64,000 nt of DNA from a phage: assembly GCA_014685065.1 (NCBI GenBank), contig GCA_014685065.1_4092.2. One strand, given 5' to 3'. The position numbers were made by a program, and so were the translations under genes. Positions 765-41,820 of this stretch are shown here, in pieces. The notes under the pieces were generated by a model. It made no database searches, was not told the origin of the DNA, and saw only the letters and a program-made list of their open reading frames with translations. How positions within the stretch are numbered: position 1 is the first letter of the stretch; each line of letters starts with the position of its first letter.

Positions 765-779
765 TCAGAGGAAATTATC

Positions 780-1715: not shown

Positions 1716-1740
1716 TTTTAAATTAAATGAGGAATTAACT

Positions 1741-4240: not shown

Positions 4241-4243
4241 TAA

Positions 4244-4670: not shown

Positions 4671-4701
4671 CCACATCAAAAAATTGCATCTGAGGATACT
4701 T

Positions 4702-5364: not shown

Positions 5365-5597
5365 TACTAAGTTTTGTTGTTGCACTATTGTTTATGTTCT
5401 ATCCTACACTAGTGGCATTAGCCACTAGACGAACGATGGTAGATCTCACTACTGTATTCTTGCTAAACGTGGCATTAGTACTGGTGTCTATTATCATTCC
5501 AGTGAGCTTTACAGTTATTGATATTATTTCGGTATTACTCTTCGTGTTAAGTTATCTTATGCTTATTGAAGAAACAAATGTTGACAAACGTTCGTAG
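5355..5597 (+). CDS. small membrane protein
   Basis: mostly hydrophobic 80-aa ORF. Confidence 0.5.
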   Translation: MYLVLSFVVALLFMFYPTLVALATRRTMVDLTTVFLLNVALVLVSIIIPVSFTVIDIISVLLFVLSYLMLIEETNVDKRS

Positions 5598-5608
5598 TAC
5601 TGTATAAT
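5581..5608 (+). promoter_or_regulatory. sigma70-like promoter, TTGACA ... AGTACTGTATAAT, overlapping 3' end of previous gene
   Basis: TTGACA 5581-5586, TATAAT 5603-5608. Confidence 0.55.
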
Positions 5609-5654
5609 GGTTCCTGTAGTCTGAAACTTAACACTTAAACTTGAGGTAAAAAAT

Positions 5655-5981
5655 ATGCTATCAGTACTAATTTCAATTCCGTCTTTAATTCTGATTTGGC
5701 TTCTGGTTTACGAATGCTTTATTACTGATGATAATGATAAAAAAGAGTTCTCTGAGTTGTTTATGCTTGATTCACCGATTGTGCGTATTTTCTATACAGT
5801 CGTTGTGGTTTCAGTAATTGTATGGGTTTTGAGTTTTATCTTCCCACTCGGTGCAGTAGTTAAAACTTTGGATTTAGTTGAGAACTTTGTTGCAATTATG
5901 TGGCTAATCAAAGCACTATTTGCAGGAAATGTTAAAATTTGGATTGATATTATCAAATTCAAGTTCACGAATAAGATGTAA
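5655..5981 (+). CDS. small membrane protein
   Basis: RBS GAGG; several hydrophobic segments. Confidence 0.5.
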   Translation: MLSVLISIPSLILIWLLVYECFITDDNDKKEFSELFMLDSPIVRIFYTVVVVSVIVWVLSFIFPLGAVVKTLDLVENFVAIMWLIKALFAGNVKIWIDIIKFKFTNKM

Positions 5982-6006
5982 CAGTGAAAATATCTCTATA
6001 GTATTA

Positions 6007-6040
6007 AATACTTCTGTACATATATATAGTACAGAAGTAT
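6007..6040 (+). terminator. perfect 13-bp inverted repeat around an AT loop, followed by T-rich tract
   Basis: AATACTTCTGTAC-atatatat-GTACAGAAGTATT then TTCTCGTT. Confidence 0.45.
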
Positions 6041-6059
6041 TTCTCGTTAGAGGTTTGTT

Positions 6060-6419
6060 ATGAAGAGTTATATAAAATTAATAGCACTTGTGTGTGCATT
6101 ATTTTCATGTTTTAGTTATGGTGCAGCAGCAGAAACATATTGTCGTAGTACTAAGGGAACGTGGCATGTATTGACTAACGACCCTAGAAATGGTAAAAAT
6201 ATAGTTGTTGATGGTGTGATTTATCGTTTTAAAGTAGAAAGTATTATCGGTAATAAAAAAATCTCGACTTATAGAGATGATTCTGGTACATTAGCAAACG
6301 TAATATTAATTGTAGACCCAAGAACTGGTAATGGTGATATCTATATAGTAATTTACTTGGACTCATCGGTACGCCGTGACCTAGATATAGATAAATTGAA
6401 CTTACACTGTGAAATATAG
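6060..6419 (+). CDS. secreted/periplasmic hypothetical protein
   Basis: signal-peptide-like N-terminus ending YGAAAE. Confidence 0.55.
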   Translation: MKSYIKLIALVCALFSCFSYGAAAETYCRSTKGTWHVLTNDPRNGKNIVVDGVIYRFKVESIIGNKKISTYRDDSGTLANVILIVDPRTGNGDIYIVIYLDSSVRRDLDIDKLNLHCEI

Positions 6420-6430
6420 GACTTAAAAAA

Positions 6431-6808
6431 ATGGTAAACACTATTTTACTTTTGTTGTTGAATATTCCAATTATTCTGTCTTTTTTAATTTCTATTTTTA
6501 TGGCAGGATATTGTTTAGTTGCAGTAATTCATTTCATTTTAACAAACAAATATGTCCTAATTTCTAAGCTTGATTCTATTTTTGCTTGCGATTCGATTGC
6601 TTATAACTTGTGGTTAATTTGTTCTTGCATTATGGGAGTAACTTTCCTTCTGTATGTATTTGATGTCCTTGACCAAAAGTTCGTATATATCAGTACTGGA
6701 TTGGCTCTTTATCCTGCTACGTGGTACTTGATTTACGTTGGTGATATATGGTATAGTACTTATAAAGAATATCAGTACAAGAAATCACTTAACGTTGGAG
6801 GAAAATAA
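6431..6808 (+). CDS. membrane protein
   Basis: multiple hydrophobic helices. Confidence 0.5.
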   Translation: MVNTILLLLLNIPIILSFLISIFMAGYCLVAVIHFILTNKYVLISKLDSIFACDSIAYNLWLICSCIMGVTFLLYVFDVLDQKFVYISTGLALYPATWYLIYVGDIWYSTYKEYQYKKSLNVGGK

Positions 6809-6810
6809 TC

Positions 6811-7161
6811 ATGAAAATTATTTTATTTTTTGTATGTATGTTAATGTGTGGATTGTCATATGCTGAACCATTGGAAGGTTTAGTTTGTACAGATGGTAAT
6901 ATTAAACATATCTATCAAGGTGATAGTGACGATCGAGATATTGTATATATTGATGGACAATCATATACGTTTGTTAAAGAGCATACAGTAGGCGACATTA
7001 GCTTCACTGAGTTTTCTAACGACACAGACCCTAACTTCTTAGCGTTTATTGAAGTAGATGTATATGAAGATAGTAATGGTACACAATATGCTAAATTAGT
7101 TATGATGCGTCGTGGTGCTAAAGAAACTAGTTTTGGTGGCTTGTGTAAATATAAGGATTGA
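6811..7161 (+). CDS. secreted hypothetical protein
   Basis: signal peptide MKIILFFVCMLMCGLSYA; RBS GGAGG. Confidence 0.55.
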   Translation: MKIILFFVCMLMCGLSYAEPLEGLVCTDGNIKHIYQGDSDDRDIVYIDGQSYTFVKEHTVGDISFTEFSNDTDPNFLAFIEVDVYEDSNGTQYAKLVMMRRGAKETSFGGLCKYKD

Positions 7162-7165
7162 TATT

Positions 7166-7357
7166 ATGTTGATTTATCAAGGTGATAATATTCGTGTTAT
7201 GCAGCATCCCTACTTACAAATCTTTGATGTGCAGCAGTATATGGAAGGTGATGACCCAAGAACCTATGGTCGTAAGTATGATTACTTCACTGTAAAGCAG
7301 TGTAACAATATTAACGAAGTACGACAATTAGTTAAAGAACTTCAAAACAAAGGTTGA
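7166..7357 (+). CDS. hypothetical protein
   Basis: ATG 7166 just after previous stop; track ORF 7112 overlaps in another frame. Confidence 0.45.
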   Translation: MLIYQGDNIRVMQHPYLQIFDVQQYMEGDDPRTYGRKYDYFTVKQCNNINEVRQLVKELQNKG

Positions 7358-7383
7358 CTTCGGTCAGCCTTTTTTGTTATAAT
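7351..7383 (+). terminator. bifunctional module: terminator hairpin AGGTTGAC-TTCG-GTCAGCCT + T-run, with -35 TTGACT in the stem and -10 TATAAT downstream
   Basis: hairpin 7351-7370, T-run 7371-7375, TATAAT 7378-7383. Confidence 0.65.
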
Positions 7384-7411
7384 TCTCTTAATAAATTAGA
7401 GGATTTTAATT

Positions 7412-7852
7412 ATGTATGTATATCGTTTTGAACTTAAATTTAGTTACATTGAACCTAACTTAGATCCTGCACGAACTGTAGGTCCGTTTGCACGGTATTC
7501 AACCAGATACAGTACTAAAAATGGATTTGACCGTTTGCTCATGACTACACCTTCTCAATTCCAACCTGAACCAACTGAGGATGGGATCTATTCAATCAAA
7601 AGTGGATGGGTATTTGGCTGTCAAAGTTTGAAAGATTTGTTCAGATTCTTCACTATGGACTTAGGTAAATTGCATCGTGCTGGGTTTGCTATATCTGTAT
7701 ATGAAGTTCCAGACCACCATGTAGACATTGGTCGTAATCAGGTTCAGTACTATTGCGGTAGTGCTAAATTAGTTCGTATCATGTCAGTTAAGGAAGCAAA
7801 GGATGAGTTCCGACAAAGTAAAAGAGAAACACATGAGGTAATATATGGATAA
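7412..7852 (+). CDS. hypothetical protein
   Basis: RBS GAGG; downstream of module. Confidence 0.55.
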   Translation: MYVYRFELKFSYIEPNLDPARTVGPFARYSTRYSTKNGFDRLLMTTPSQFQPEPTEDGIYSIKSGWVFGCQSLKDLFRFFTMDLGKLHRAGFAISVYEVPDHHVDIGRNQVQYYCGSAKLVRIMSVKEAKDEFRQSKRETHEVIYG

Positions 7853-8189
7853 AACTCAAATAGAATTAAAGAAATTTGTTTCATTCTATCTTCCTGATGA
7901 CCCACGTAATTCACAAAAAGATATTGAATATTATAATATCCTATCTAAACAGTTAATGAGAAAGTTTCAACAGTGTTTAACTATATTCAATACAGATGGA
8001 AGACGTAGATACCGAATCGTTTCAATGAATGATGAAAACGCAAATTTCTTTGATTACGATGTGGTTTTTAGAGCATATAATGATGATCGTATAAAATTAA
8101 ATTATGATCAAATTATACTTGACCTGAATGTTATATGTGTTATAATCACTCACGTAGCCGAACTTAATGGTTTTAAAGAATGGTATTGA
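7845..8189 (+). CDS. hypothetical protein
   Basis: overlapping coupled ORF. Confidence 0.5.
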   Translation: MDKTQIELKKFVSFYLPDDPRNSQKDIEYYNILSKQLMRKFQQCLTIFNTDGRRRYRIVSMNDENANFFDYDVVFRAYNDDRIKLNYDQIILDLNVICVIITHVAELNGFKEWY

Positions 8190-8203
8190 ATAAAGGATAA
8201 CAT

Positions 8204-8470
8204 ATGAAGCTTAAATTACAATATAATGGATTTACTTTACGTAATGATACTGAATTTATTAATCGTTCTCCTGGTGCTGAACTGTTTTTACGAGAGATGA
8301 ACATTCCTTTCATCATTACTACAGTGGGCGACCGTGAAGTTCTACAATACGCAGAGCATCCGATCATTGATGTTCCTTGGTACTCTGAGCATATGTACAT
8401 GGATATGGCACGTCGCTACAACTGTAAGTTCGTAGTTGAAGGTGATAAAATTACAGTCGAATTTAAATAA
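8204..8470 (+). CDS. hypothetical protein
   Basis: RBS AGGA before ATG. Confidence 0.5.
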   Translation: MKLKLQYNGFTLRNDTEFINRSPGAELFLREMNIPFIITTVGDREVLQYAEHPIIDVPWYSEHMYMDMARRYNCKFVVEGDKITVEFK

Positions 8471-8481
8471 GGTAAATTAAA

Positions 8482-8775
8482 ATGATCAGTACTTCAGTTA
8501 ATGAAAGCATCGTCGCTGACGTAGAAATGGTTAAAGAATGTGCAGATGAAACTCTTCGTGATATGTACATTAATGATTTAATTACTGAATACGGTAGTCG
8601 TGGTGTACACGAATTTATTCGTTTAAGTGGAGAGTTGATGAAAAATCGAATTCGTATGAAGCTTAACGTACATCCAAAAGCATGGGCATTTACATTAAAA
8701 TACGCAGAAGATATTGTGAATTTGCGTCGAACTGAAGTATATGAACGTTTACACAATGGTATGTTAGATAAATGA
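8482..8775 (+). CDS. hypothetical protein
   Basis: ORF with upstream AAGG RBS. Confidence 0.5.
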   Translation: MISTSVNESIVADVEMVKECADETLRDMYINDLITEYGSRGVHEFIRLSGELMKNRIRMKLNVHPKAWAFTLKYAEDIVNLRRTEVYERLHNGMLDK

Positions 8776-8827
8776 TTGTAAAATAGGAATTCTTAAATGA
8801 ATTCCTTTTTGTTTATAAGGTATAGTA

Positions 8828-9049
8828 ATGAAATATATAGTACTTGTACTGATATTATTCAGTACTGTTGTAAGTGCTAAACAAAAAGAATATGTTAAAT
8901 GTATAAATTACGAAGAGAAATATGTTGAAACATATAAAAAAAGTATAATTAAAAACGTTTCTATTACTGACCGAGGAACAATCATTGTACTTAAAAATGG
9001 GTTAATTATGTTATATAAACCACACGTTAAATGTGAAATTATTAATTGA
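8828..9049 (+). CDS. secreted hypothetical protein
   Basis: signal peptide MKYIVLVLILFSTVVSA. Confidence 0.5.
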   Translation: MKYIVLVLILFSTVVSAKQKEYVKCINYEEKYVETYKKSIIKNVSITDRGTIIVLKNGLIMLYKPHVKCEIIN

Positions 9050-9056
9050 GGAAAAT

Positions 9057-9629
9057 ATGAATCGTAAAGGTCGTTTTAAAGTATCAAAGAAAAATAAGAG
9101 TTCTAGGTTTAAACCTATAGTATTAACAGGTAAATCTAATAAAGAATTGACTGCACTTAGTAAAAAAATAATTTCATCTAAGATTGAAGTATCATACGTA
9201 AATTCATTAAAATATATGAATGTAAAACCACTAGACAAACTCATTTCACTTATATTTCAGCGTAATGATTTTGAGATATCAGTAGATGATTATAGAGCCT
9301 ATAATACTGGTTTCATTAATGTTACTTGTAGTAAAGAACTAACTGAGTTGGAAAACTTGTCATGTATAGTAAATCTAGATAAAGGTGTAGTGAAATACAA
9401 TTTTGTACATTTTACTAATATTAATAATGGCATGGGTGTACAATCCAGACCTATAGTACCTACATGTGATGTTACTAAATTAGCAAAGCTCAATGATGAA
9501 GAATATTTTCAAGAAAGTATTGTGACTGAGCATTTAGATGATATAATAGCTACTTACAAAGAGTGCATATGGGTGTTGAATGCTATAAAGCCTAAATTGT
9601 GTTTAATGAATATTGTTCGTGATTTATGA
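9057..9629 (+). CDS. hypothetical protein
   Basis: ATG 9057 after RBS GAGGAAAAT; track GTG start 9033 overlaps previous gene. Confidence 0.55.
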   Translation: MNRKGRFKVSKKNKSSRFKPIVLTGKSNKELTALSKKIISSKIEVSYVNSLKYMNVKPLDKLISLIFQRNDFEISVDDYRAYNTGFINVTCSKELTELENLSCIVNLDKGVVKYNFVHFTNINNGMGVQSRPIVPTCDVTKLAKLNDEEYFQESIVTEHLDDIIATYKECIWVLNAIKPKLCLMNIVRDL

Positions 9630-9642
9630 ATGGGGAATCGTA

Positions 9643-10086
9643 ATGAGTTGGGTAAATGTTAATAGTATTGAACTTAACGAACAAGATATTTTTGCATTTG
9701 TAAATTTAACCAATAATACAGTACTAAAAGGGCGTTTGTTCAGTGCGAGTGATGGATATAAATGGATCTCTTTGATGGATGATAGTGGTGTGATTTATAA
9801 TGTAATGCAATTACCCCAATGGGTATATAGTAACACTGCTGACGATGTTCTTGCCGCAGTTATGCGTGAGTTTGAAAAACTCCCAGGTGGTGATATCAAA
9901 AACAAAGTTTTTAATGCAGAACGTAAAAATTATACAGCACAGCAGTTGGAATCCCTTGCCATTGCTGCTTATCAAGCTGCTATTAAGAAGCCAGAGTGCG
10001 TTATTCTTAAGTACGTACCAGACTTAAAACTTACGTTGGAAGACATGGATGCATTCATTTTTACATCTGAACTTGATCAGTACTAA
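9643..10086 (+). CDS. hypothetical protein
   Basis: ATG 9643 after RBS GGGGA. Confidence 0.55.
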   Translation: MSWVNVNSIELNEQDIFAFVNLTNNTVLKGRLFSASDGYKWISLMDDSGVIYNVMQLPQWVYSNTADDVLAAVMREFEKLPGGDIKNKVFNAERKNYTAQQLESLAIAAYQAAIKKPECVILKYVPDLKLTLEDMDAFIFTSELDQY

Positions 10087-10201
10087 TTTAACTTTGGGAC
10101 AACCATTCTTATTATGATATAATGTTTTATGTCATTCGATATAAATGACAACGGAACTATAAATATTATAGTAAAATTTATCTCTTATAGGAGTTATAAA
10201 A

Positions 10202-10585
10202 ATGGTTGATAAATGGAATAAGAAAGATCCATCACATGATGTTGATATTTCTGGTCTAGACAATGCACATAAGCACAAGTATCTAGATTCACTAGGTCTT
10301 CTAAAACCAGACCAAAGTCTTGCACATGATCGTCCATCCCGTGAAAAAGCATTTAGCCTAGAATCACTAGGTCATGAGCTTAATCGTGTGTTTGAGGATC
10401 ACCCAATCTATGTACGTGATATTATCGAGAAACTTAAAGTAACTCCTAAAGAGCACTTTAAAGCAACTGTACACTCTGCATTCCGTGCATTGCATGATTC
10501 TCTCAAGAAAACTCACAATCTTCGTAAAATTCATGATGAAATCGTGAATGCAATCGAAAGTGAAAAACATAAGTTCAAGAAGTAA
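10202..10585 (+). CDS. hypothetical protein sharing motifs with large protein at 10831
   Basis: RBS AGGAG; LDSLGLL and I..KL..PKE motifs recur in next large ORF. Confidence 0.55.
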   Translation: MVDKWNKKDPSHDVDISGLDNAHKHKYLDSLGLLKPDQSLAHDRPSREKAFSLESLGHELNRVFEDHPIYVRDIIEKLKVTPKEHFKATVHSAFRALHDSLKKTHNLRKIHDEIVNAIESEKHKFKK

Positions 10586-10592
10586 TAAAAAT

Positions 10593-10626
10593 GGGTTGAC
10601 TAAGGTCAGCCCTTTGTTGTATCATA
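10593..10626 (+). terminator. variant terminator module (GGGTTGAC-TAAG-GTCAGCCC)
   Basis: hairpin 10593-10613; weaker T tract. Confidence 0.5.
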
Positions 10627-10654
10627 ACTTCTCAATATAACTGAGGTATCATAT

Positions 10655-10768
10655 ATGCAAGGTTTGAAATTTGTAGTTGCTGCACTCATCGCCGCAGTTC
10701 TGGTTGGTGGTGTATTCTATGTAGTGGATCAAAAAGTAAATCCACCTGCACAAGAACAATCTAAGTAA
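10655..10768 (+). CDS. 37-aa hydrophobic peptide, single-gene cassette between two terminator modules
   Basis: RBS CTGAGG, ATG 10655; hydrophobic core VVAALIAAVLVGGVFYVV. Confidence 0.35.
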   Translation: MQGLKFVVAALIAAVLVGGVFYVVDQKVNPPAQEQSK

Positions 10769-10776
10769 CAAAATAA

Positions 10777-10813
10777 GGTTGACTTCGGTCAGCCTTTTCT
10801 TTATACTATAAAT
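10777..10813 (+). terminator. bifunctional terminator/promoter module
   Basis: AGGTTGACTTCGGTCAGCCT + TTTTCTTT, then TATACT/TATAAAT. Confidence 0.6.
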
Positions 10814-10830
10814 ATAGACATAGAGAAAAA

Positions 10831-12375
10831 ATGAAATCTATGGAGAGAAATCAAATGCCAAGTAATTTTACTGATAAAAATGGTGGTAACATGGCTGGTC
10901 ACTCGGATAAATGGAGTGAACGCAACCGCCGACCAAATAGTTATCAAGCAGGTCAAGGTTCACGTGGATCACGTAACCAAGGAACTGGTCTAGCTGGTAA
11001 AGCAAACGCAGAAGCAGGTGAAGTTAAGAGTACTGAGAACATGACTGAGCTAGAAAAGCTACGTTATGTTAATTCATTGGGACTTCTTAATGCTACACAA
11101 AAACAACGTCTAGCTGATATGGAACGTGAAGAAAAAGAAAAGTCTGCTCCTGCGAAAGAAGAACCAAAACAAGAAGCACCAAAGGCGGTTAACCCTGTCA
11201 AAGAACTGTCTGATAAGTTAGGTAAGATTTTTGCTAATAAACCACAACTTATCCAAGGTATTGTGAAAGAATTGCAATCTGTACCTAAAGAAGAATTAAA
11301 AGTCAAAGCACAAGCTGTGCTTGATGCAATGAGTGGAAATACCAGTACTGAACCAACTGAAGTATTCAGTACTATAATGCGTGCACTTGAAGGTCAAGAA
11401 GAAGCGACTGCTGAAGAAGCAAGTCTTGAAAGCATCCTCCATACTGTTAACCGTATAGGTAAAGAAGACCGTGCTAACGCCCAGCAAGTTAAGAATGTTC
11501 TTGCTAAGTTAGAAAATCGTCTTGAAGGCAAAGATGATAAGATTCAATTAGTACATGATGCTATTAAAGCAGCATTAGATTCTTACTCACCAGGTGAGAA
11601 GTCTCGATTCATCACTGTTATGAATTCTGCATTCAATACTATGAAAAAGTATGAAGCTGAACATGGTGAGAAAGTATCAAAAGATGGTTACTTAGTTCGT
11701 GCAGATGAAGAAGGTGCAGTTGACCAGAAAGATGCTGAAACATCTCATGATGATTTACCTGATACTGTTGATATGGATGGTTACATTCATCGTCCAGAAA
11801 TGGGAGAGTTTGGTTCTGACAAAGAAGGATTTGAACATGCAATGGCAGTGTACAAAGCTCTCGTGGACAATCCAGATTATGCCAACCGATTTGTAGATGA
11901 GTTTGATAGTGCATGGAACAACTACAAAGACAAAGGTTATGACTTCCCTGCTGAGGCAGCATTCTTTGAACTTGGTAAACTATTAGCTAAACATGGAATT
12001 GATGTAGGTTCTAAAGATGGTACTGATACTGATGGCATGGAAGCAGAATTGGCTAAAGATCGTGAAATGAACGACAACTCCATTCATGAACTCCAAAAGC
12101 TAATGATGTGGATATCCGATATTGGTAAAAAAGCTGGTGCTGATAATAAGAGTATCAACAAAAACATTAGTTGGATTAAAAGTAATGTTGGTAAAAATGC
12201 TCGTAAACTACAAAAAGCATGGACTGATTTAGTAAATGGTGCTGATGATGTTGACATTGAATCACCTGAAGCATACGAATATGCATTAACTACTCTTGAT
12301 AATTCCTTTAAAGATTACGATAACGGTAACGTAACTCATTGGGAAAAGGACATCATGAGCAAATACGGTAAATGA
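10831..12375 (+). CDS. large acidic hypothetical protein (514 aa) with low-complexity Lys/Glu linker
   Basis: longest ORF in first block; alternative ATG at 10855 after GGAGAG. Confidence 0.65.
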   Translation: MKSMERNQMPSNFTDKNGGNMAGHSDKWSERNRRPNSYQAGQGSRGSRNQGTGLAGKANAEAGEVKSTENMTELEKLRYVNSLGLLNATQKQRLADMEREEKEKSAPAKEEPKQEAPKAVNPVKELSDKLGKIFANKPQLIQGIVKELQSVPKEELKVKAQAVLDAMSGNTSTEPTEVFSTIMRALEGQEEATAEEASLESILHTVNRIGKEDRANAQQVKNVLAKLENRLEGKDDKIQLVHDAIKAALDSYSPGEKSRFITVMNSAFNTMKKYEAEHGEKVSKDGYLVRADEEGAVDQKDAETSHDDLPDTVDMDGYIHRPEMGEFGSDKEGFEHAMAVYKALVDNPDYANRFVDEFDSAWNNYKDKGYDFPAEAAFFELGKLLAKHGIDVGSKDGTDTDGMEAELAKDREMNDNSIHELQKLMMWISDIGKKAGADNKSINKNISWIKSNVGKNARKLQKAWTDLVNGADDVDIESPEAYEYALTTLDNSFKDYDNGNVTHWEKDIMSKYGK

Positions 12376-12384
12376 TAAAACTAA

Positions 12385-12418
12385 AGGTTGACTTCGGTCA
12401 GCCTTTTTTTGTAAATAC
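12385..12418 (+). terminator. bifunctional terminator/promoter module
   Basis: AGGTTGACTTCGGTCAGCCT + T7 run. Confidence 0.65.
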
Positions 12419-12445
12419 AAAAGAGGAATTAAGAAGAGGATTACA

Positions 12446-12697
12446 ATGAAAAAATATATTATATTTGGAATTGTATTATTTTCCAGTACTGCTTATGGTG
12501 CAGATTATCATTGCTCCGTAGCAAGGCAGGATTTCAGAAATGGGGAGTTCTATACTACCTCATACACAAAAGGAATAATACACGACACCGACAGAACTAT
12601 TGGATTTAATGCGTTTGACAACAAAGATTCATATACTTCAGGTATACTATCTGAGCGTAAGACGGATGTACTCGGAATAGAAAAAGAGTTTCGGTGA
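12446..12697 (+). CDS. secreted hypothetical protein
   Basis: signal peptide MKKYIIFGIVLFSSTAYGA; RBS AGAGGA. Confidence 0.5.
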   Translation: MKKYIIFGIVLFSSTAYGADYHCSVARQDFRNGEFYTTSYTKGIIHDTDRTIGFNAFDNKDSYTSGILSERKTDVLGIEKEFR

Positions 12698-12707
12698 TTC
12701 CGTGGCA

Positions 12708-13025
12708 ATGTGTAATGACATTGAAAGTACTAAAAAAATTTATTATAATAATGAAATAAATTATCGTTTTCATAATTTAACCACAAATAAAAGTTTACTA
12801 TTTTACAATTGTAAAGAAGTAAAACTCCCACCAGACAATAGCTGTAACCCAACAAACCCATCACCAGCACAATGTAATACTCCAACTGAACCTGATACCA
12901 ATAAAAAAGACAAAGATAAAAAAGAAGACAAAAAACCATTAAAAGATAAAAGGAAAGATAAAAAACCTAATCCGTTTAAAAATAATAAACCAGCACAACC
13001 CGATATGACGTGTAAAATAAAATAA
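12708..13025 (+). CDS. Lys/Pro-rich hypothetical protein
   Basis: ORF with KDKDKKEDKK low-complexity tail; start uncertain (GTG 12702 or ATG 12708). Confidence 0.4.
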   Translation: MCNDIESTKKIYYNNEINYRFHNLTTNKSLLFYNCKEVKLPPDNSCNPTNPSPAQCNTPTEPDTNKKDKDKKEDKKPLKDKRKDKKPNPFKNNKPAQPDMTCKIK

Positions 13026-13034
13026 GGATATATA

Positions 13035-13454
13035 ATGAAAAAGATTTTTTTAAGTATTATTTTAGTACTTTTTAGTTTTAATGTATATGCAGCAGATGCT
13101 AAACAGGTTGCTAATACAGTAAAAGATGTTATAGTAGACAATGCTCCTACCTTAGAGGAAATTGGGGTAAAAACTTGTGATATAGTAATATATAATTTAG
13201 TTAATGATGAACGAGTTATGTTGAATACGTATGAACAAGTAGTCCCATTGGTTGAATCTGGTGATGCTTTTAGCTTTACATATAAAGTTAAATTAACAGG
13301 AGGGGTTGAAGTTAATCTTGACATTGATACCGCTTCAGTACTAAAAGATAAACTAGGATATGTGTTCAATCGTATTCGTGAAGAAGGTCATCTTAAGTAT
13401 GTTTATGAAAGTAAAATACTAAAACGTGCAATAGTTATAGAAAACTGTAAATGA
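13035..13454 (+). CDS. secreted hypothetical protein
   Basis: signal peptide MKKIFLSIILVLFSFNVYAA; RBS AAGGA. Confidence 0.55.
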   Translation: MKKIFLSIILVLFSFNVYAADAKQVANTVKDVIVDNAPTLEEIGVKTCDIVIYNLVNDERVMLNTYEQVVPLVESGDAFSFTYKVKLTGGVEVNLDIDTASVLKDKLGYVFNRIREEGHLKYVYESKILKRAIVIENCK

Positions 13455-13461
13455 TAATAAA

Positions 13462-13495
13462 AGGGTTGACTTCGGTCAGCCTTTTTTGTTATGAT
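13462..13495 (+). terminator. bifunctional terminator/promoter module
   Basis: AGGGTTGACTTCGGTCAGCC + T6, then TATGAT. Confidence 0.65.
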
Positions 13496-13523
13496 GTTGA
13501 TATTAACTACAGAGGATAAAGTA

Positions 13524-14165
13524 ATGACTAAGCAAGAAATATTCAAAACTTTAATTGACATTTTGCGTCCATCAAAAACTCGTTGTGCGATGGAGTTTGA
13601 TATTCCTTATGCTGAACGCGTAATCTTTCCACAAGTTAAAGCTGCTGGACTTACTTTGCTTGGAATGGGGATGTACTCTGTAGTAGTTGAACATAAAAAC
13701 TATCCTGGACGAGCATTTAAAGTAACCACTTCACGCTGGGATGGTTTTCGTGCTTATGCAAAGTACTGCATTGAAAACGCAGGAACCAAGTTTCTTCCAG
13801 TGATCTACAGTGCCAACGAACAAGGAAACTTTGGATGGTATGAGATGGACAAGTACTATCCTATAATTAAACAAAAAAATAATTATGATGACTTTGTTAG
13901 TACTAAAATTGGAGATTTGTATTCGTATGCACATGCTGGTCAGTACGCAACTTCAGTGAATGATATGCGTGGAAATTCTGAAGAGATTGCTATTGCAACG
14001 GTCGCTGCTAACATCATGAAAGAGTTTCACGGGCGTTTTGTACCAGACATTCATTCAAGTAATGTAATGATGGATAAAGATGGGAATGTATTCATTACTG
14101 ATCCTCTTTCGTGTGATGTGCGTAGAGAAATACCAATTACTGAAGAAGATCCAGTTTTTTATTGA
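13524..14165 (+). CDS. protein-kinase-like fold protein (atypical mini-kinase)
   Basis: Gly-loop-like LGMGMYSVVV, AFKV, catalytic-loop-like DIHSSNVMM, ITDP; start set to ATG 13524 after AGAGGA. Confidence 0.5.
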   Translation: MTKQEIFKTLIDILRPSKTRCAMEFDIPYAERVIFPQVKAAGLTLLGMGMYSVVVEHKNYPGRAFKVTTSRWDGFRAYAKYCIENAGTKFLPVIYSANEQGNFGWYEMDKYYPIIKQKNNYDDFVSTKIGDLYSYAHAGQYATSVNDMRGNSEEIAIATVAANIMKEFHGRFVPDIHSSNVMMDKDGNVFITDPLSCDVRREIPITEEDPVFY

Positions 14166-14226
14166 CAGAACTGATGTTCTGATGTATTCTTAATAAACCA
14201 TAAAAATTGCGGTAAAGGATAAAATC

Positions 14227-14508
14227 ATGCGTTCATTTGAAAACTTAATAGGTAAGCATCTTTTATCTGAAATTGATGCAGACGTTAAAGAATTATCCAA
14301 ATCAAAAAGTTACATTCATTTGGATGAACTGTTTGTTAAGTACGGTGAGATTGGTTTTAAATCATTATTTGTTTTTACTATGAAAGTACATAGTTTAAAG
14401 TACTTCGATTTGAGTGCTAAAGATGGTGAACCGAATCTATATTACATGTATTACCTTAAGAACAAAGATGAAGCTAATACATTACTCTCTGAATATATAT
14501 TGGGGTAA
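14227..14508 (+). CDS. hypothetical protein
   Basis: RBS AAGGA before ATG. Confidence 0.5.
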   Translation: MRSFENLIGKHLLSEIDADVKELSKSKSYIHLDELFVKYGEIGFKSLFVFTMKVHSLKYFDLSAKDGEPNLYYMYYLKNKDEANTLLSEYILG

Positions 14509-14510
14509 AA

Positions 14511-14849
14511 ATGGAACAATATTTTGAATTAATAAACAAAGTATCATTTTATGTAGTATCTTTGGTTTGGGTGTATTATATGTTTTGCTACATTATTGCA
14601 TTCTTCCGATACACTACTTTATATGAACGTATCTACTATGATGCCCCAATTTCATTCTTGATGTTTTGTGCATGTACGTGGGGAATATTAGAAGTACTGA
14701 TATGTGGGTATAGTACTGATGAATTAAATCTGGTATCGGTCTTGACTGGGTTTTCATTTGTTGTTATGATAGCTGCCGTTCCAGTATGGTTGTTCTTTGT
14801 ACTAGTTCATCGCATTGATATATGGCGTTCTAATATCCCTGAAAAGTAA
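14511..14849 (+). CDS. small membrane protein, paralog family T
   Basis: 2-3 TM helices; shared F(R/K)Y..L..R.Y motif and basic C-terminal tail NIPEK. Confidence 0.55.
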   Translation: MEQYFELINKVSFYVVSLVWVYYMFCYIIAFFRYTTLYERIYYDAPISFLMFCACTWGILEVLICGYSTDELNLVSVLTGFSFVVMIAAVPVWLFFVLVHRIDIWRSNIPEK

Positions 14850-14852
14850 GGA

Positions 14853-15200
14853 TTGGTAATGATTTATTACACTAACATGTTTGCCTATGCTGTTGCTTGC
14901 ATTTACATTGTTTACTTCTTATTCGGTGGAGTACTGTGCTTCTTTAAGTACAAAACATTGTTCAACCGAATGTACCCAAATCATCCAATTGTAGTTGTAC
15001 TTTTGATTCTTTCAGTTTCTCAAATAATCGTTGAAACTACAATGGGTATCAGTAGTGTACATTATAGTTTTGGCACTATAGTAATTATTACTATGCTTAT
15101 TGCATACATTTTAGTACTTGGATATGGTATCTTTGGTAATATTGGTATGAAAATGTATCATCGAATTAAAACATTACGTGATAATCTACCGGAGCGTTGA
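14853..15200 (+). CDS. small membrane protein, paralog family T
   Basis: same architecture; tail NLPER. Confidence 0.55.
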   Translation: MVMIYYTNMFAYAVACIYIVYFLFGGVLCFFKYKTLFNRMYPNHPIVVVLLILSVSQIIVETTMGISSVHYSFGTIVIITMLIAYILVLGYGIFGNIGMKMYHRIKTLRDNLPER

Positions 15201-15201
15201 T

Positions 15202-15546
15202 ATGTATAATTTGAACCTAATCTCATATATTATAACAACACTGTTTACATTCTATGCCTTTGTTGGTATAATCCTACTGTACTTTAAATTTTATAAAGTG
15301 TTTAACCGTTTCTATCCTTCAATGGAGAATGAGTTTTTCTTTGTGTTGTACGTATGTTACACATTAATGGCTACATGTTTCACTGTAGCCGATGGTGTCA
15401 TCGGCATTAAAACTGCTTCCCCAAATGGTAGTACGCTGGTTGCATTTATTCTTACTGGATTCCTTGCAACTTATATTGCCTTCATTACAACATGGTCAGT
15501 GGTTGAATTTCTCTTGCGACTACGAAAGAATATGCCGAATCGATAG
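15202..15546 (+). CDS. small membrane protein, paralog family T
   Basis: ATG 15202 after GGAG; tail NMPNR. Confidence 0.55.
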   Translation: MYNLNLISYIITTLFTFYAFVGIILLYFKFYKVFNRFYPSMENEFFFVLYVCYTLMATCFTVADGVIGIKTASPNGSTLVAFILTGFLATYIAFITTWSVVEFLLRLRKNMPNR

Positions 15547-15555
15547 GAGACATAT

Positions 15556-15810
15556 ATGTTTGCGTTGCGTAATAAAAACACTAAAGAATTATTATGTATT
15601 GATACCGTATGGGATTGTGCGGGATCAACTACAGTTCTTGAAGAAGGAACTGGATATTGCGTGTTTGTTGTACATGATAGGAATGAACTCGAATTATTAC
15701 TTGCTGAGTTCAATGCTGGTGGTAATCCTAACTGTACTGAATACCCTGAGATTATCAATCCAGCACCACCAGGCTCTTATGAAATTCTACAACTGTGGGA
15801 GTTGAAGTAA
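15556..15810 (+). CDS. hypothetical protein
   Basis: RBS GGAGA before ATG. Confidence 0.5.
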   Translation: MFALRNKNTKELLCIDTVWDCAGSTTVLEEGTGYCVFVVHDRNELELLLAEFNAGGNPNCTEYPEIINPAPPGSYEILQLWELK

Positions 15811-16190
15811 TGCGTCAAATGCACAAAGTAACCGAGCTAAACAAGCGTCTGGTTAAACAATCAATGTTCGAGGATAAAGAGTCTTATTATAACTTTAAAC
15901 GTGCAGTAGAGGCTGCTATCCACATTCAGAAGCTTAAAGAACGTGGTTGTATTATTCTGGAAAATGGTTCGGAAGTTGTAACGGATGACTTTAGTGTAGC
16001 GTTTGATGTTTCACCTGACGGGACGCTATCAATGCCCCGCTTAGGAACTGGAAACATGACTGTTTGGGTTGGCTTCACTATGGGGAATGTACCTGGTACT
16101 GTGTACGTAGATGATGCAGAATTGAAAGACAGTTTCAAAAACTTATCTTATCTTGAACCACAATACGCACATGAAATGAATTTATTTTGA
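15810..16190 (+). CDS. hypothetical protein
   Basis: ATG 15810 overlapping previous stop (TAATG). Confidence 0.5.
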   Translation: MRQMHKVTELNKRLVKQSMFEDKESYYNFKRAVEAAIHIQKLKERGCIILENGSEVVTDDFSVAFDVSPDGTLSMPRLGTGNMTVWVGFTMGNVPGTVYVDDAELKDSFKNLSYLEPQYAHEMNLF

Positions 16191-16191
16191 G

Positions 16192-16249
16192 TTGACAAAC
16201 ACATTCAGTACTGTATAATGCTTATCAAGGGGATGAACTTCTCATCCCT
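16192..16249 (+). promoter_or_regulatory. promoter (TTGACA-16-TGTATAAT) plus 5' stem-loop GGGATGA-ACTTC-TCATCCC
   Basis: TTGACA 16192-16197, TATAAT 16214-16219, hairpin about 16228-16249. Confidence 0.6.
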
Positions 16250-16266
16250 ACAATCGAGGAACTACC

Positions 16267-16821
16267 ATGATTACTTTTAAGAAAACTGCTAACCACATCC
16301 ATGAAATCTACATTAACGGTCACAAAGCTGGCCTTCTTCGTTTACTCGCCCATCACCCTGATGCTACCGTATCTGATAATGAACCTAAAGATTGGCGTGT
16401 CTTTTTCTTTGGAAAGTACAGTGATTTTCAAGTATCAAACCTGAAGAACATTCGTTCAGTATGCACGTTAACTGAAATTAAAGAAAAGTTAGCACAAGCA
16501 TTGAAAACTAATCCAGATGGTGTTCTTCCACCTGATAACTTTGTAGAGAAAGGTTATGCCTTAGCTCATTTCAAAGATGGTACTATTCAATCTATCAGTA
16601 CTGAATATGAATATCATTGGACTGAGTACTTCACTTATGGTTCGAGTAATACATTGATGGATTCACGTAGTAAATTGGAAGAAGTACTGACTCGTATGAA
16701 TGAACGCGAGCGTCAGTTATATGACAAACCAGAAATGTGGAGTTCAACTTACATTGACCGTATTGACTATGTTATTATGACTCCAATCTTTGACACTGCT
16801 TACTATGATTCTTTGAAATAA
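16267..16821 (+). CDS. hypothetical protein
   Basis: RBS GAGGA; 184-aa ORF. Confidence 0.55.
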   Translation: MITFKKTANHIHEIYINGHKAGLLRLLAHHPDATVSDNEPKDWRVFFFGKYSDFQVSNLKNIRSVCTLTEIKEKLAQALKTNPDGVLPPDNFVEKGYALAHFKDGTIQSISTEYEYHWTEYFTYGSSNTLMDSRSKLEEVLTRMNERERQLYDKPEMWSSTYIDRIDYVIMTPIFDTAYYDSLK

Positions 16822-16832
16822 GGATAACTTAT

Positions 16833-17009
16833 ATGAAACTACGTACTCGTAATCGACTGATGGATGCACTGTACAATGAACAGCTTTCACTGAATGAAGT
16901 GAAGCGTCAGTTAATGTACACATATCAGTTTCCCGCTCGCATTGCAAAACAACGTGCTAAAGAATTGCTGAAAGAAGCAATCGAGTACTGGGAATCTGAT
17001 TCGTACTAA
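16833..17009 (+). CDS. small basic hypothetical protein (58 aa)
   Basis: RBS AAGGA, ATG 16833; followed by ACGTGA-tatg-TCACGT hairpin. Confidence 0.35.
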   Translation: MKLRTRNRLMDALYNEQLSLNEVKRQLMYTYQFPARIAKQRAKELLKEAIEYWESDSY

Positions 17010-17048
17010 TATTACGTGATATGTCACGTTAATTAAGTGAGGCGATAA

Positions 17049-17300
17049 ATGAAAATATTATTAGTTCTAATACTACTAATAGTTTTACCATTTACTTTAG
17101 TATCCCCTGGACTTGCATGGAATGTATTTGTGTACTTAGTATGTACTATTGTAGTAAATGGTATCTTGTTCTTAGTTCTATTCATAAATGGAATAGGACA
17201 CGGTGGAGGATGGACCAGTACTGCTGATATTGTACATAAAACCACTATGTCTTTATTTGTAATGTGGAATTTATTCTGGACTTGGTTTGTGTTCTTCTAA
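17049..17300 (+). CDS. small membrane protein
   Basis: RBS GAGG; hydrophobic throughout. Confidence 0.45.
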   Translation: MKILLVLILLIVLPFTLVSPGLAWNVFVYLVCTIVVNGILFLVLFINGIGHGGGWTSTADIVHKTTMSLFVMWNLFWTWFVFF

Positions 17301-17308
17301 TTAAAAAT

Positions 17309-17680
17309 ATGAATATAGATTTGAAAGGTGCAACACGAACTGTTATCCTCATTGGGGAATATGCTATCAAGATTCCAACCTTTAAAAGTTGGAAGCTATT
17401 CTTAACAGGGATGATAGCTAACCTCAATGAACGTTCGTGGATGCAGTACTCCAATCGTAGTGATAGTAGTATCTGTCCTACGTTGTGGTCATCATGTACT
17501 GGACTAGTAACTGTACAGAAACGTTGTAAGCCAGTTCAACATAGGGGTTTATTTTGGGTGGAGTTGTGTGCTTTAGCATTGAATTCAGAGTTAAGTACTG
17601 ACTTCTTCTATTCAGATGCGAAGCCAGAAAACTTTGGGTATCTGGGTGGTAAGTTAGTTAAACTTGATTATGGAGATTAA
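17309..17680 (+). CDS. minimal protein-kinase-like protein
   Basis: GEYAIKIP (VAIK-like), SDAKPENFGY (catalytic-loop-like), KLDYGD (DFG-like) at C-terminus. Confidence 0.5.
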   Translation: MNIDLKGATRTVILIGEYAIKIPTFKSWKLFLTGMIANLNERSWMQYSNRSDSSICPTLWSSCTGLVTVQKRCKPVQHRGLFWVELCALALNSELSTDFFYSDAKPENFGYLGGKLVKLDYGD

Positions 17681-17681
17681 T

Positions 17682-17951
17682 ATGTACGCACTGTATAATA
17701 AAGAAAAGAAACGATTTGCTAAGGTTGAAATTTCGATTGATACATTTGATATGTTGGAGTACTGTATTGTAACTGACCTATATGCTAACTTGTATTACGT
17801 TCTTGATGACGTATCAGTACTGCAACGATTGCTTGAGAATTCCAAAAGTCAATGCCAGGGCATCCATGATGGTTCATCTTATGAAACACCTGAGTGTTCC
17901 TACGGCTATCTGGACGGGTATGAGATTGTGAAGTTGGGGATCATTGAATAA
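17682..17951 (+). CDS. hypothetical protein
   Basis: ATG 17682 after GGAG. Confidence 0.45.
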   Translation: MYALYNKEKKRFAKVEISIDTFDMLEYCIVTDLYANLYYVLDDVSVLQRLLENSKSQCQGIHDGSSYETPECSYGYLDGYEIVKLGIIE

Positions 17952-17954
17952 AGA

Positions 17955-17990
17955 AAAGGGTTGACTTCGGTCAGCCCTTTTTGCTATAAT
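17955..17990 (+). terminator. bifunctional terminator/promoter module, long form
   Basis: AAAGGGTTGACTTCGGTCAGCCCTTTTTGCTATAAT; TTGACT 17961-17966, TATAAT 17985-17990. Confidence 0.7.
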
Positions 17991-18018
17991 TATTTCATCA
18001 AGACGAGAGGATGAATAC

Positions 18019-18534
18019 ATGACACGCATTAACTTAGTACACGTTAAAGAACTTGCTGACCAACATCTGATGGCTGAATATCGTGAACTCCCACGTGTAT
18101 TTGGTGCTGTACAAAAACACGTTCAAGCACGTAAGCGTGTACGTGATTTCAAAATTAACAGTACTTATCTGTTAGGTTCAGGTCATGTGACATTCTTTTA
18201 CGACAAGTTGCTGTACTTACAGAAGCGTCATATCGATATTGTTAACGAATGTTTGCGTCGTGGTATGAAGATTCAAAACACTGAAGTAAACGACATTAGC
18301 GGCTTCCCTGCTGAGTTTTGTAATGACTACGTACCAACGGAGTCAGAGATTAAAATGTCTCGTGATCGTTTGATTGAGAAGCTCCAGATGAAGCCTACGT
18401 GGTATAAGTTTACTGATGTTGAATGTCCACAGTACGTTAAAGATATGCAGAACGTAAGTAGTAAGAACGAATCTAGTACTGATATGTTCGACGAAATTGA
18501 AGAACAAATCAAAGATGAAATGAATAATTATTAA
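18019..18534 (+). CDS. denV: endonuclease V (pyrimidine-dimer DNA glycosylase), T4 DenV homologue
   Basis: N-terminus [39 protein letters not shown]...[10 protein letters not shown] is near-identical to T4 endonuclease V as recalled from memory. Confidence 0.85.
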
Positions 18535-18539
18535 AGGAA

Positions 18540-18556
18540 AGGGTTGACTTCGGTTA
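18540..18556 (+). repeat. truncated copy of the terminator module (left arm only)
   Basis: GGGTTGACTTCGGTTACAC lacks the complementary arm and T-run. Confidence 0.5.
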
Positions 18557-18572
18557 CACAAAGGAACATAAC

Positions 18573-18767
18573 ATGTTATTAGTATATTCAAAGCGTTTCT
18601 GGATTTCTTTTATTGTACTATCGCTAATCGGCTTCGGTTTGAGTATACTCTTTTCGTGGGATGAATTGGGTACATGGTATTATGAAGTCCCGTGGTACAT
18701 GAAGATAGCTCCTTGTTATGCGGCATTGTTCGTGTCATTCCTTATTGTTGTCTTCAGCGAGGATTAG
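18573..18767 (+). CDS. small membrane protein
   Basis: RBS AAGGAA; hydrophobic 64-aa ORF. Confidence 0.4.
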   Translation: MLLVYSKRFWISFIVLSLIGFGLSILFSWDELGTWYYEVPWYMKIAPCYAALFVSFLIVVFSED

Positions 18768-18873
18768 TTGATGTAGTATGTGCTACACCAAAGTATTTGG
18801 ATATTTTAGATATAAACATTGACACCTGTTCTATCTTTCTGTATTATGTACATCACCAAATGAGGAATACAAC

Positions 18874-19233
18874 ATGGCATCTTTAAGTGAAATCGCAGAA
18901 TACAACCCACTAACAATCTCAACAATTCAACGTACAAAAACTTTTTATTTCCGTCCTGCTGATGGATGGAAACGTGGAATGAATGGTGACTATCGAGTAC
19001 TGGAAGATTCACTAATCGAGCGTATCAACTCTGAACTACAGAAGTATGAAGGTGTTAAAGTTGTGCGTTCAACTTCTCGTTATTTTGAGTACTACATTGA
19101 GTCTTCAACTGTAAATGAAAACTCATCATTCTCGGTGGACAACACTGATATTCTTCGTAATGCTGTTGGTCTTTTATGCAGGATTGCAGAAGAAATTGGA
19201 TTAACTATCACCACAATGAGTGAGTTAGAATAA
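18874..19233 (+). CDS. hypothetical protein
   Basis: RBS GAGGAA before ATG. Confidence 0.5.
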   Translation: MASLSEIAEYNPLTISTIQRTKTFYFRPADGWKRGMNGDYRVLEDSLIERINSELQKYEGVKVVRSTSRYFEYYIESSTVNENSSFSVDNTDILRNAVGLLCRIAEEIGLTITTMSELE

Positions 19234-19236
19234 CAT

Positions 19237-19272
19237 AAAGGGTTGACTTCGGTCAGCCCTTTTTGCTATAAT
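19237..19272 (+). terminator. bifunctional terminator/promoter module, long form
   Basis: same 55-bp unit as at 17955 and 20651; TATAAT 19267-19272. Confidence 0.7.
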
Positions 19273-19298
19273 TATTTCATCAACACAAGAGGTAACAA

Positions 19299-41678: not shown

Positions 41679-41706
41679 TTGACATTATGATTCAGTACTG
41701 TATAAT
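41679..41706 (+). promoter_or_regulatory. sigma70-like promoter (TTGACA-16-TGTATAAT) inside ORF-free region
   Basis: TTGACA 41679-41684, AGTACTGTATAAT to 41706; no ORF over about 20 codons downstream. Confidence 0.55.
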
Positions 41707-41711
41707 GTTCT

Positions 41712-41820
41712 ACATAGAGAGATGAGTTGCTGCGAACAATTCATTTACTCTACCTCCTGTCGTGAGACAGTACAGAAAAGATAGTTCCTCCTGTGGTGGT
41801 ACATCTTTTTGAACCTCATA
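41712..41820 (+). ncRNA. candidate small non-coding transcript (or 18-codon peptide)
   Basis: starts after promoter at 41679; runs to T-tract CATCTTTTTG about 41803-41812; only ORF is 18 codons. Confidence 0.25.

Follow-up and report, generated by a model that had tools for sequence, protein, structure and literature searches.

The 64,000-nt window analysed here (the whole stretch of contig GCA_014685065.1_4092.2, GenBank assembly GCA_014685065.1, read on one strand, 5′ to 3′) comes from a 121Q-like jumbo coliphage (Asteriusvirus). At 41679–41706 it carries a promoter, P+1, that is directed into DNA free of recognizable genes, a few hundred base pairs inside the left physical end of the genome. 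We propose, with a probability of roughly 0.4 for the explanation as a whole, that P+1 gives rise to an early non-coding transcript acting in cis at a control region of the genome end, where it would activate or prime a replication origin.

A first-pass annotation of the sequence had placed a good promoter here, within an ORF-free (open reading frame-free) region, and closer analysis bore out both statements. The elements concerned are as follows.

41679–41706, plus strand: promoter P+1, with −35 TTGACA (41679–41684) and −10 TATAAT (41701–41706); score 12/12.
41712–41714, plus strand: predicted transcription start, at the A of ACAT, from the family pattern described below.
41592–41621, plus strand: weaker promoter P+0, TTGGGA-18-TATAAT; score 10/12.
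41653–41660, unstranded: operator-like CAGTACTG palindrome upstream of the P+1 −35, kept in 12 of 14 phages.

P+1 matches the consensus at 12 of 12 positions across a 16-nt spacer, which contains CAGTACTG at 41693–41700, and is the top-scoring sigma-70-like site between 40 and 43.5 kb. A generic promoter scan of this AT-rich interval is uninformative alone, returning 17 sites against 13.9 expected. The perfect sequence TTGACA-N16-TATAAT occurs 14 times in the window, always on the plus strand, against 0.07 expected from shuffles, and P+1 is therefore not a chance match. Conservation was assessed in an alignment of 14 phages, namely the window and 13 relatives, three of which are only 75–78% identical in the stretch. 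TTGAC (41679–41683) and TTCAGTACTGTATAATG (41691–41707) are invariant, the 16-bp spacing is found in all, and the same core is carried by two metagenome contigs from close relatives. The −10 hexamer of P+0 is likewise kept in all 14 phages (as TATAGT in EJP2, where the −35 is TTGACG). With sigma-70 hexamers, a spacing within 16–18 bp and conservation of both hexamers and spacing, P+1 is very probably a genuine early promoter for the host sigma-70 polymerase.

P+1 belongs to a promoter family of the phage. AGTACTG directly precedes TATAAT in 10 of the 14 perfect promoters, and when looser −35 or −10 hexamers are allowed the family has about 21 plus-strand members in the window. They have an A-rich upstream flank and ACAT(C/A)(A/G)AG 5–6 nt past the −10; their transcripts begin with a 5′-terminal stem-loop, typically GGGGAGAA-tag-TTCTCCCC. 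Nearly all are followed within about 20–57 nt by a Shine–Dalgarno (SD) sequence and an ORF. P+1 has the AGTACTG at its −10, the ACAT and the stem-loop, but no SD or start codon within about 60 nt. By the family pattern its transcript would start at about 41712–41714. Early transcripts elsewhere in 45836–58115 (for example at 50882, 51154, 53622 and 58088) carry a near-identical leader, ACATCAAGGGGAGAAtagTTCTCCCCAC, with the 5′-terminal stem-loop before the SD; this leader may be an mRNA-stabilizing or regulatory element common to a dozen genes.

The motif in the P+1 spacer is widespread. The window contains 55 copies of CAGTACTG, where about one is expected, and 13 AGTACTG sites fall within 1.6 kb (41287–42836). 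AGTACT is the commonest hexamer of the window, with 264 copies (12.2-fold over composition; the next palindromic hexamer reaches 2.6-fold). It is found in all reading frames, at one per 325 bp, and is denser intergenically, at one per 109 bp, where it occupies promoter spacers, −35 flanks, terminator stems and free TTCAGTACTGAA palindromes. It is dense as well at the left ends of Klebsiella phage fENko-Kae01, Mimasvirus XbC2 and GAP32, and is absent from 61.3–64 kb, right past the right boundary of the direct terminal repeat (DTR). An abundant protein that binds DNA as a dimer may recognize AGTACT. A reading of TACTGTATAAT... as a LexA box was rejected by eye, as the left half-site alone matches. 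In the searched literature we found no description of promoters, transcripts or the AGTACT motif in Asteriusvirus; the orphan promoter P+1, the AGTACTG spacer motif, and the Chi palindrome and conserved terminal non-coding module dealt with below are undescribed there.

The DNA downstream of P+1 appears to be non-coding. No ORF of at least 40 aa overlaps 41691–42292 on either strand, and the next plus-strand ORF of that size, which is the first gene annotated in homologues, starts at 42985, 1.27 kb from P+1. The one coding candidate is short.

41722–41784, plus strand: 20-codon micro-ORF (MSCCEQFIYSTSCRETVQKR), rejected as a gene; intact only in near-identical relatives.

This ORF had been described as having 18 codons, with GAGAG resembling a ribosome-binding site, and had been put forward as a possible micro-peptide. 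Besides the different length, GAGAG (41717–41721) abuts the ATG with zero spacing. Real genes of the phage have AGGAG or GAGGA 6–9 nt upstream of the start; here a purine run, GAGAG, or else GGGTG touches the ATG, no SD lies 5–9 nt upstream, and the ATG is itself base-paired in the stem of the first hairpin of the transcript (H1, below). Translation into MSCCEQFIYSTSCRETVQKR could appeal to the position of the ATG, 8–10 nt past the predicted transcription start, and to an ORF that is intact in the nine closest of the 13 aligned relatives, though these are nearly identical in sequence there. The more divergent phages speak against it. The ATG has become AGG or AGA in JNE01, Turkey5 and EJP2, A4 and CMSTMSU are frameshifted, and the three substitutions in UE-S1 are all non-synonymous, yet neutral or favourable for the hairpin. 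With start, frame and stop not jointly conserved among the relatives, the micro-peptide gene was rejected, and we regard translation of this ORF as very improbable. No conserved small ORF was found on either strand of 41587–41958, the other four overlapping small ORFs being unconserved as well. We conclude that the product of P+1 is in all likelihood non-coding.

Several GenBank records, among them those of Salmonella phage SD, list coding sequences (CDSs) for hypothetical proteins inside the gap, up to 8–10 in some. Because no tested small ORF in 41587–41958 is conserved, the submitters' calls overlapping this stretch are probably over-annotations and not genes; the test covered 41587–41958.

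The transcript is predicted to be significantly structured. From 41713, a stretch of 213 nt has a predicted folding energy of −66.6 kcal/mol, compared with −45.6 ± 4.2 kcal/mol for shuffles (z = −4.95); for its first 100 nt, z is −3.36 on the plus strand versus −1.93 for the antisense. Five hairpins are predicted.

41715–41752, plus strand: H1, 5′-terminal stem-loop with the micro-ORF ATG in its stem; from folding and pair changes.
41757–41770, plus strand: H2, CUGUC-GUGA-GACAG with a GNRA-type loop; GTCGTGAGACA invariant in 14 phages.
41775–41810, plus strand: H3, imperfect hairpin with CCUCCU at 41787–41792, ending in a T-run at 41806–41810; from folding.
41836–41869, plus strand: H4, 14-bp hairpin in which two CAGTACTG palindromes pair, followed by the tail AUUUUAAUCU; weak candidate for a terminator; −17.8 kcal/mol.
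41891–41910, plus strand: H5, Chi palindrome CCACCAGC-ttgt-GCTGGTGG, without a U-tract; −16.3 kcal/mol.

In H1, three pairs have changed on both sides and G·U alternates with A·U on the plus strand. H2 is preceded by a first CCUCCU (41753–41758), and its closing pair has gone from C:G to A:U in JNE01 and Turkey5. H3 folds at −7.8 kcal/mol including an A/U extension (core −2.5), and its CC/GG pairs are invariant. H4 pairs two copies of CAGUACUG, and both palindromes are invariant in the 14 phages. H5, which reads CCACCAGC-uugu-GCUGGUGG as RNA, is replaced in A4 and EJP2 by non-Chi hairpins that fold better on the plus strand (−6.2 vs −2.0 and −10.2 vs −8.6 kcal/mol, respectively). Across the hairpin alignment (11 sequences), 95% of cells are paired and six pairs show double changes, a number reached by six shuffles in 500. 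At 0.137, the covariation score exceeds that of shuffles (0.099; 0/500) and of slid controls (at most 0.060). At several pairs G·U and A·U replace one another, a pattern compatible with the plus strand only. Ten distinct sequences underlie the covariation, whose support is modest; pattern scans for divergent homologues yielded 121Q alone from IMG/VR and two close relatives from metagenomes. Since H5 is kept as a plus-strand hairpin despite replacement of its sequence, the transcript would reach at least H5, 200 nt downstream. Taken together, the data give modest but consistent support for a structured plus-strand transcript extending to at least about 41910. Rfam 15 returned no match over the whole window at the gathering score; over the gap, at E up to 5, it gave only two chance-level matches elsewhere in the gap (E about 3–4). 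A separate scan for tRNA and tmRNA genes found none. No similarity to the transcript was found in 5,426 Escherichia coli genomes.

The first-pass annotation had envisaged a small RNA of about 100 nt ending at a T-tract near 41803–41812. A non-coding product is supported, and TTTTT does occur at 41806–41810, but the hairpin before it is weak and the run itself is not conserved in divergent relatives, so that the two make an unconvincing terminator. The true terminators of this phage consist of GC stems followed by U6–7. H3 with its U5 is weak, and its T-run is lost in divergent relatives. H4 was listed as terminator-like, but its tail, AUUUUAAU, degenerates, with the U-tract broken to AUAUUAAU in A4, JNE01 and EJP2. 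For H5, which the G17 record lists as a terminator called by ARNOLD, there is no U-tract. A discrete RNA of about 100 nt is therefore unsupported, although partial termination or processing at H4 or H5 is possible. No Rho-utilization-like stretch, C-rich and G-poor, is evident downstream of H5 (C/G at most 1.4). Because no efficient intrinsic terminator is evident, we infer that much of the transcription continues rightward.

The position of P+1 relative to the physical genome end was fixed by comparison with related records.

41305, unstranded: left end of the virion DNA, first base of the DTR; from the starts of the vB_Ec-M-J and fEgEco12 records.
About 61399, unstranded: right boundary of the DTR, in a short intergenic stretch; from the end of the fEgEco12 repeat.

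The gap and its flanks match 121Q and about 40 further Asteriusvirus genomes, with 96% identity to 121Q over 2 kb and 100% over 41560–41960. Its 121Q counterpart lies between gp265 and gp266, amid small co-oriented genes of unknown function. The whole gap is conserved as well as, or better than, the flanking genes. In several records the homologous stretch occupies positions 246–655, and those records begin at the physical genome end. Those of vB_Ec-M-J and fEgEco12 both open with AGTAGGCAGAGGAAGTCTGCC (AGTAGGCAGAGG...), which corresponds to window position 41305. Direct terminal repeats are annotated at 1..21525 in vB_Ec-M-J. The termini of fEgEco12 have been established by PhageTerm and restriction digests (PMC13070987); its repeat is 20,993 bp long and the last 34 nt of it match window 61366–61399. 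As this verified left end maps to 41305, P+1 lies about 375 bp inside the genome end, directed inward, and is the first strong promoter of the genome. Being inside the DTR of about 20 kb, it is present twice per virion. The genes of the DTR are all co-oriented.

Downstream of the hairpins the transcript would meet further elements.

42075–42217, unstranded: degenerate 8-bp-period iterons, GGCTAGAY-like (GAYGGCT six times); from a repeat search.
42220–42248, unstranded: AT-rich tract aatcaaaatttttattttattttttcc, directly 3′ of the iterons, a candidate unwinding element.
42443–42470, minus strand: convergent orphan promoter P−1, TTGCTT-16-TATAAT, with CAGTACTG in its spacer; from an inverted copy.
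42658–42685, minus strand: convergent orphan promoter P−2, TTGACT-16-TATAAT; score 11/12.
42900–42958: family-type promoter and leader hairpin of the first gene.

The iterons are spaced by 16, 16, 24 and 40, all multiples of 8, and the plus strand is G-rich over them (C/G 0.5–0.68). Tandem Repeats Finder gave no 8-bp array, the repeats being too degenerate, and the array was seen only by the other repeat search. A role of the AT tract in unwinding is something that we infer only. P−1 carries a 16-nt perfect inverted copy of TTCAGTACTGTATAAT in a block that is 93–95% conserved, and the −10 block of P−2 is 99% conserved. Both are members of the P+1 family on the minus strand that lack ORFs; the minus-strand orphan units are not significantly structured (z between −0.75 and −1.5). 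The surrounding non-coding stretch 42380–42745 is nearly invariant in six phages, including EJP2 (74% identical overall), and surpasses neighbouring genes in this respect. It holds two paralogous 70-nt units, 42380–42449 and 42595–42664, each downstream of a minus-strand early-family promoter and with a ...GAGAAAG... leader hairpin. Similar orphan promoter–leader units occur at 46270 (minus strand) and 51992 (plus strand).

A comparable layout recurs in two other genera. A block AGTACTCCATCCTAAATC...TTTTGGAGTACC (41509–41552) is found again in fENko-Kae01, Salmonella phage Munch and XbC2, whose records carry it 75–130 bp from their first base. The PhageTerm-defined left end of fENko-Kae01 shows the terminal block, inward promoters, a structured transcript (z = −3.3) and a CAGTACT pair, followed by a Chi palindrome (484–503), by repeats and by a convergent counterpart of P−2 with its leader (TTGACG-17-TATAAT at 1145–1117). 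Near the beginning of the XbC2 record lie the terminal block, a copy of CCACCAGC (at 216), an inward-facing promoter and the same 8-bp iterons (618–776). The RNA sequence between H1 and H4 is unconserved in both, and it is the layout that is kept.

A cis-acting role is favoured because the sequence between H1 and H4 is unconserved between genera while the layout is conserved, because no good terminator is evident, and because the downstream elements are typical of cis-acting DNA; we put the odds that the transcript acts mainly in cis in the genome-end region at about even. In the mechanism that we envisage, transcription would begin at P+1, the RNA would fold into H1, H2, H3, H4 and H5, and much of it would extend into the G-rich iterons and the AT tract, 360–540 nt downstream. 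The proposed effect there, by analogy with T4 oriE or oriF/G, is activation or priming of a replication origin. P−1 and P−2, which face the iteron/AT region, would supply the opposite strand. P+1 is, as in a T4-type origin, directed into a non-coding region with iterons and an AT tract; origin activation or priming specifically is suggested by this analogy, and we advance it tentatively, as less likely than not.

Several observations weigh against this proposal. H4 with its AUUUUAAU tail could end part of the transcripts before the iterons. The H1 stem-loop is generic to the early leaders of the phage and is no mark of a special RNA, and the motifs that make up H4 (CAGTACTG) and H5 (Chi) probably also act at the DNA level in their own right. 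A period of 8 bp does not match the DNA helix, and the iteron array may serve end processing or packaging instead of replication; in T7, too, the terminal repeat is bordered by short tandem repeats. The distance from promoter to element, 360–540 nt, exceeds the approximately 100 bp of a minimal T4 oriF/G. No DnaA boxes or IHF sites were found in 41000–43000, and Pfam and PHROGs searches with seven flanking genes assigned all of them to unknown function, with no initiator or DNA-binding candidate. The sign of the GC skew flips at 41–42 kb and not at the gene-strand switch (about 37.4 kb), which is an origin-like feature, but the flip could equally mark a module or DTR boundary. Finally, no transcript data for any Asteriusvirus were found in the searched literature.

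Three other explanations accommodate part of the same evidence. In one, P+1 would produce a trans-acting early small RNA of about 160–200 nt, ended or processed at H4 or H5, whose exposed anti-SD-like CCUCCU (41753–41758 and 41787–41792) would pair with host or phage ribosome-binding sites and modulate translation. The structured, covarying and strand-specific nature of the RNA speaks for such a function, every divergent relative has retained two or more copies of CCUCCU, and the terminator-like H4 and the ARNOLD call on H5 in G17 offer an end. Highly expressed non-coding RNAs are, moreover, known from the DTR of phage PA5oct (PMC7318152). Set against this, a canonical terminator of the GC stem plus U6–7 kind is missing, the sequence between H1 and H4 has not been retained in fENko-Kae01 and XbC2 despite the common layout, neither Rfam nor the E. 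coli genomes gave a relative, and complementarity between CCUCC and SD sequences is too generic to identify targets. We therefore consider a trans-acting RNA unlikely, and pairing of its CCUCCU sequences with ribosome-binding sites equally so.

Less likely still is that P+0 and P+1 serve as entry promoters. Like T7 A1–A3, they would be the first exposed on entering DNA and would load host RNA polymerase at once, and their transcripts would read through the 1.27-kb leader into the early DTR genes, possibly aiding DNA internalization. Two conserved promoters in tandem, 290–375 bp from the verified left end and pointing inward, with co-oriented DTR genes ahead of them and no strong terminator in between, would suit this role, and in phages CBB and PA5oct early promoters or early transcription centre on the DTR region (PMC5259590, PMC7318152). 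The first gene, however, has its own family-type promoter and leader hairpin, two conserved convergent promoters and several hairpins intervene, and either end may enter first, the DTR giving the right side a copy of this promoter as well, about 20 kb in from the end. The least favoured of the three treats the locus as mainly a DNA-level element, either a CAGTACTG/AGTACT operator cluster or RNA polymerase sink, or a part of the terminase or end-processing apparatus, with a functionless transcript. It draws on the 13 clustered AGTACTG sites, the 12-fold enrichment of AGTACT, the palindromes in the spacer and 40 bp upstream, and the adjoining terminus, GTAATCA iterons and cross-genus terminal block. 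Perfect conservation of both hexamers and their spacing is more than conservation of a protein site needs, and the downstream hairpins carry compensatory, G·U-type and strand-specific changes; on these grounds we judge it improbable.

The Chi octamer marks the same region. GCTGGTGG occurs nine times on the plus strand of the DTR (41903, 42750, 47534, 51706, 53169, 54434, 56818, 58226 and 60024), in coding and intergenic contexts, and is the commonest GC-rich octamer there; permutations of the same composition average 0.27. By the orientation rule for RecBCD (PMC12315714), all nine copies are oriented to stop the enzyme coming from the right end. The sole inverted copy, CCACCAGC at 41891, faces the left end; it is the first that would be met from there, about 590 bp in, and it forms a perfect hairpin with the copy at 41903. 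The loop (41899–41902) is TTGT in some phages and ACAA in others, irrespective of relatedness (JNE01 versus Turkey5). Because the loop is either TTGT or its reverse complement, the whole Chi palindrome appears to be flipped, through recombination or inversion at the hairpin.

In an extension of the cis-acting proposal, the first ~1.7 kb of Rak2-like jumbo phage genomes would form a composite ‘telomere-origin’ module common to the genera. Terminase iterons at the cut site would be followed by tandem host-type promoters, a structured primer RNA and then the Chi palindrome, which would stop RecBCD about 0.6 kb from the left end; next would come iterons and AT tract, and the convergent promoters. 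Transcripts from both sides would form R-loops and prime bidirectional replication, with P+1 as the rightward primer promoter, and the oriented DTR Chi sites would channel ends into RecA-mediated circularization or concatemer formation. As a complete scheme this is speculative and rather unlikely.

The ends of the DTR have further features. A hairpin, GGCAG-aggaagt-CTGCC, comes just after the terminus at 41305, which is flanked left and right by GTAATCA repeats phased at 10 bp (41149–41243 and 41369–41402). GTGATCAGTA occurs twice near the terminus together with these repeats, whose copy number varies (3 vs 2 on the right side); GTAATCA and GTGATCAGTA are candidate terminase or end-recognition sites. 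The block AGTACTCCATCCTAAATCTCGATCCTAAAAATTTTGGAGTACC at 41509–41552, an 8-bp inverted repeat around two copies of ATCCTAAA, is 95–100% conserved in Asteriusvirus. The window as a whole holds one complete, collapsed copy of the ~20-kb DTR, flanked by tandem arrays of paralogous genes for 60–90-aa proteins of unknown function (37836–41041 and 61467–63872). The left array is on the plus strand, yet its GC skew is negative and its AT skew strongly positive; members of the right array have a common G-T-N-Y-Q-E motif and no AGTACT.

To our knowledge, nothing has been established experimentally about the start of transcription, replication or end processing in the ~350-kb Rak2-like jumbo phages. The locus provides precise handles on these processes. 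The distance of the first early promoter to a verified end is known, its orphan transcript is predicted to be structured, and the Chi palindrome, the iteron array and the convergent orphan promoters are conserved across genera. If the transcript does prime or activate replication, the Rak2-like clade would gain its first defined origin, and the T4 R-loop/oriE paradigm would then also cover phages whose terminal repeats are long.

One comparison is with CBB and the distant relative PA5oct, from the same Rak2-like clade. In CBB, RpoD-like early promoters concentrate in the early/DTR region (PMC5259590), and in PA5oct early transcription concentrates in the DTR region, where RNA-seq revealed highly expressed non-coding RNAs (PMC7318152). 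The window shares with them sigma-70-type promoters with A-rich upstream flanks, and ORF-free DTR loci that are transcribed or, here, predicted to be. It differs in that their promoters were described upstream of ORFs, and in that the non-coding RNAs of PA5oct are not at the genome end and have no sequence in common with the P+1 transcript. Chi clusters have been reported at the termini of phage P1 and the lambdoid phage LLS (PMC12315714). Here too the exact E. coli Chi is enriched near ends and terminal repeats, in the orientation active for RecBCD entering from the end; this phage, in contrast, is a virulent jumbo myovirus, an inverted copy makes a perfect hairpin inside the predicted P+1 transcript, and a RecBCD role is predicted from the sequence.

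Phage T7 has early promoters, A1–A3, with a non-coding leader near the left genome end, and a terminal repeat of 160 bp. Consensus-strength sigma-70 promoters a few hundred base pairs inside the left end, pointing inward and with non-coding DNA before the first gene, are common to both phages. Unlike that of T7, the leader here extends over 1.27 kb, with convergent promoters, an iteron array and a Chi palindrome inside it; the first gene is served by a promoter of its own, and the repeat of about 20 kb means that P+1 is duplicated.

T4 oriE consists of an early promoter and iterons, and oriF and oriG of a promoter and an unwinding element, with an R-loop as primer (PMC3016281). There is no sequence similarity between these origins and the P+1 region, the repeat unit is 8 bp here as compared with 12 nt, and, unlike in T4, convergent promoters flank the element and the locus borders a terminal repeat, a feature absent from T4. 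The points of likeness are these: as at oriE, oriF and oriG, a host-type promoter is directed into non-coding DNA with evenly spaced short repeats and an AT tract downstream, the transcript would be G-rich over the repeats, and the clade has a T4-like replisome and late sigma factor (PMC5259590).

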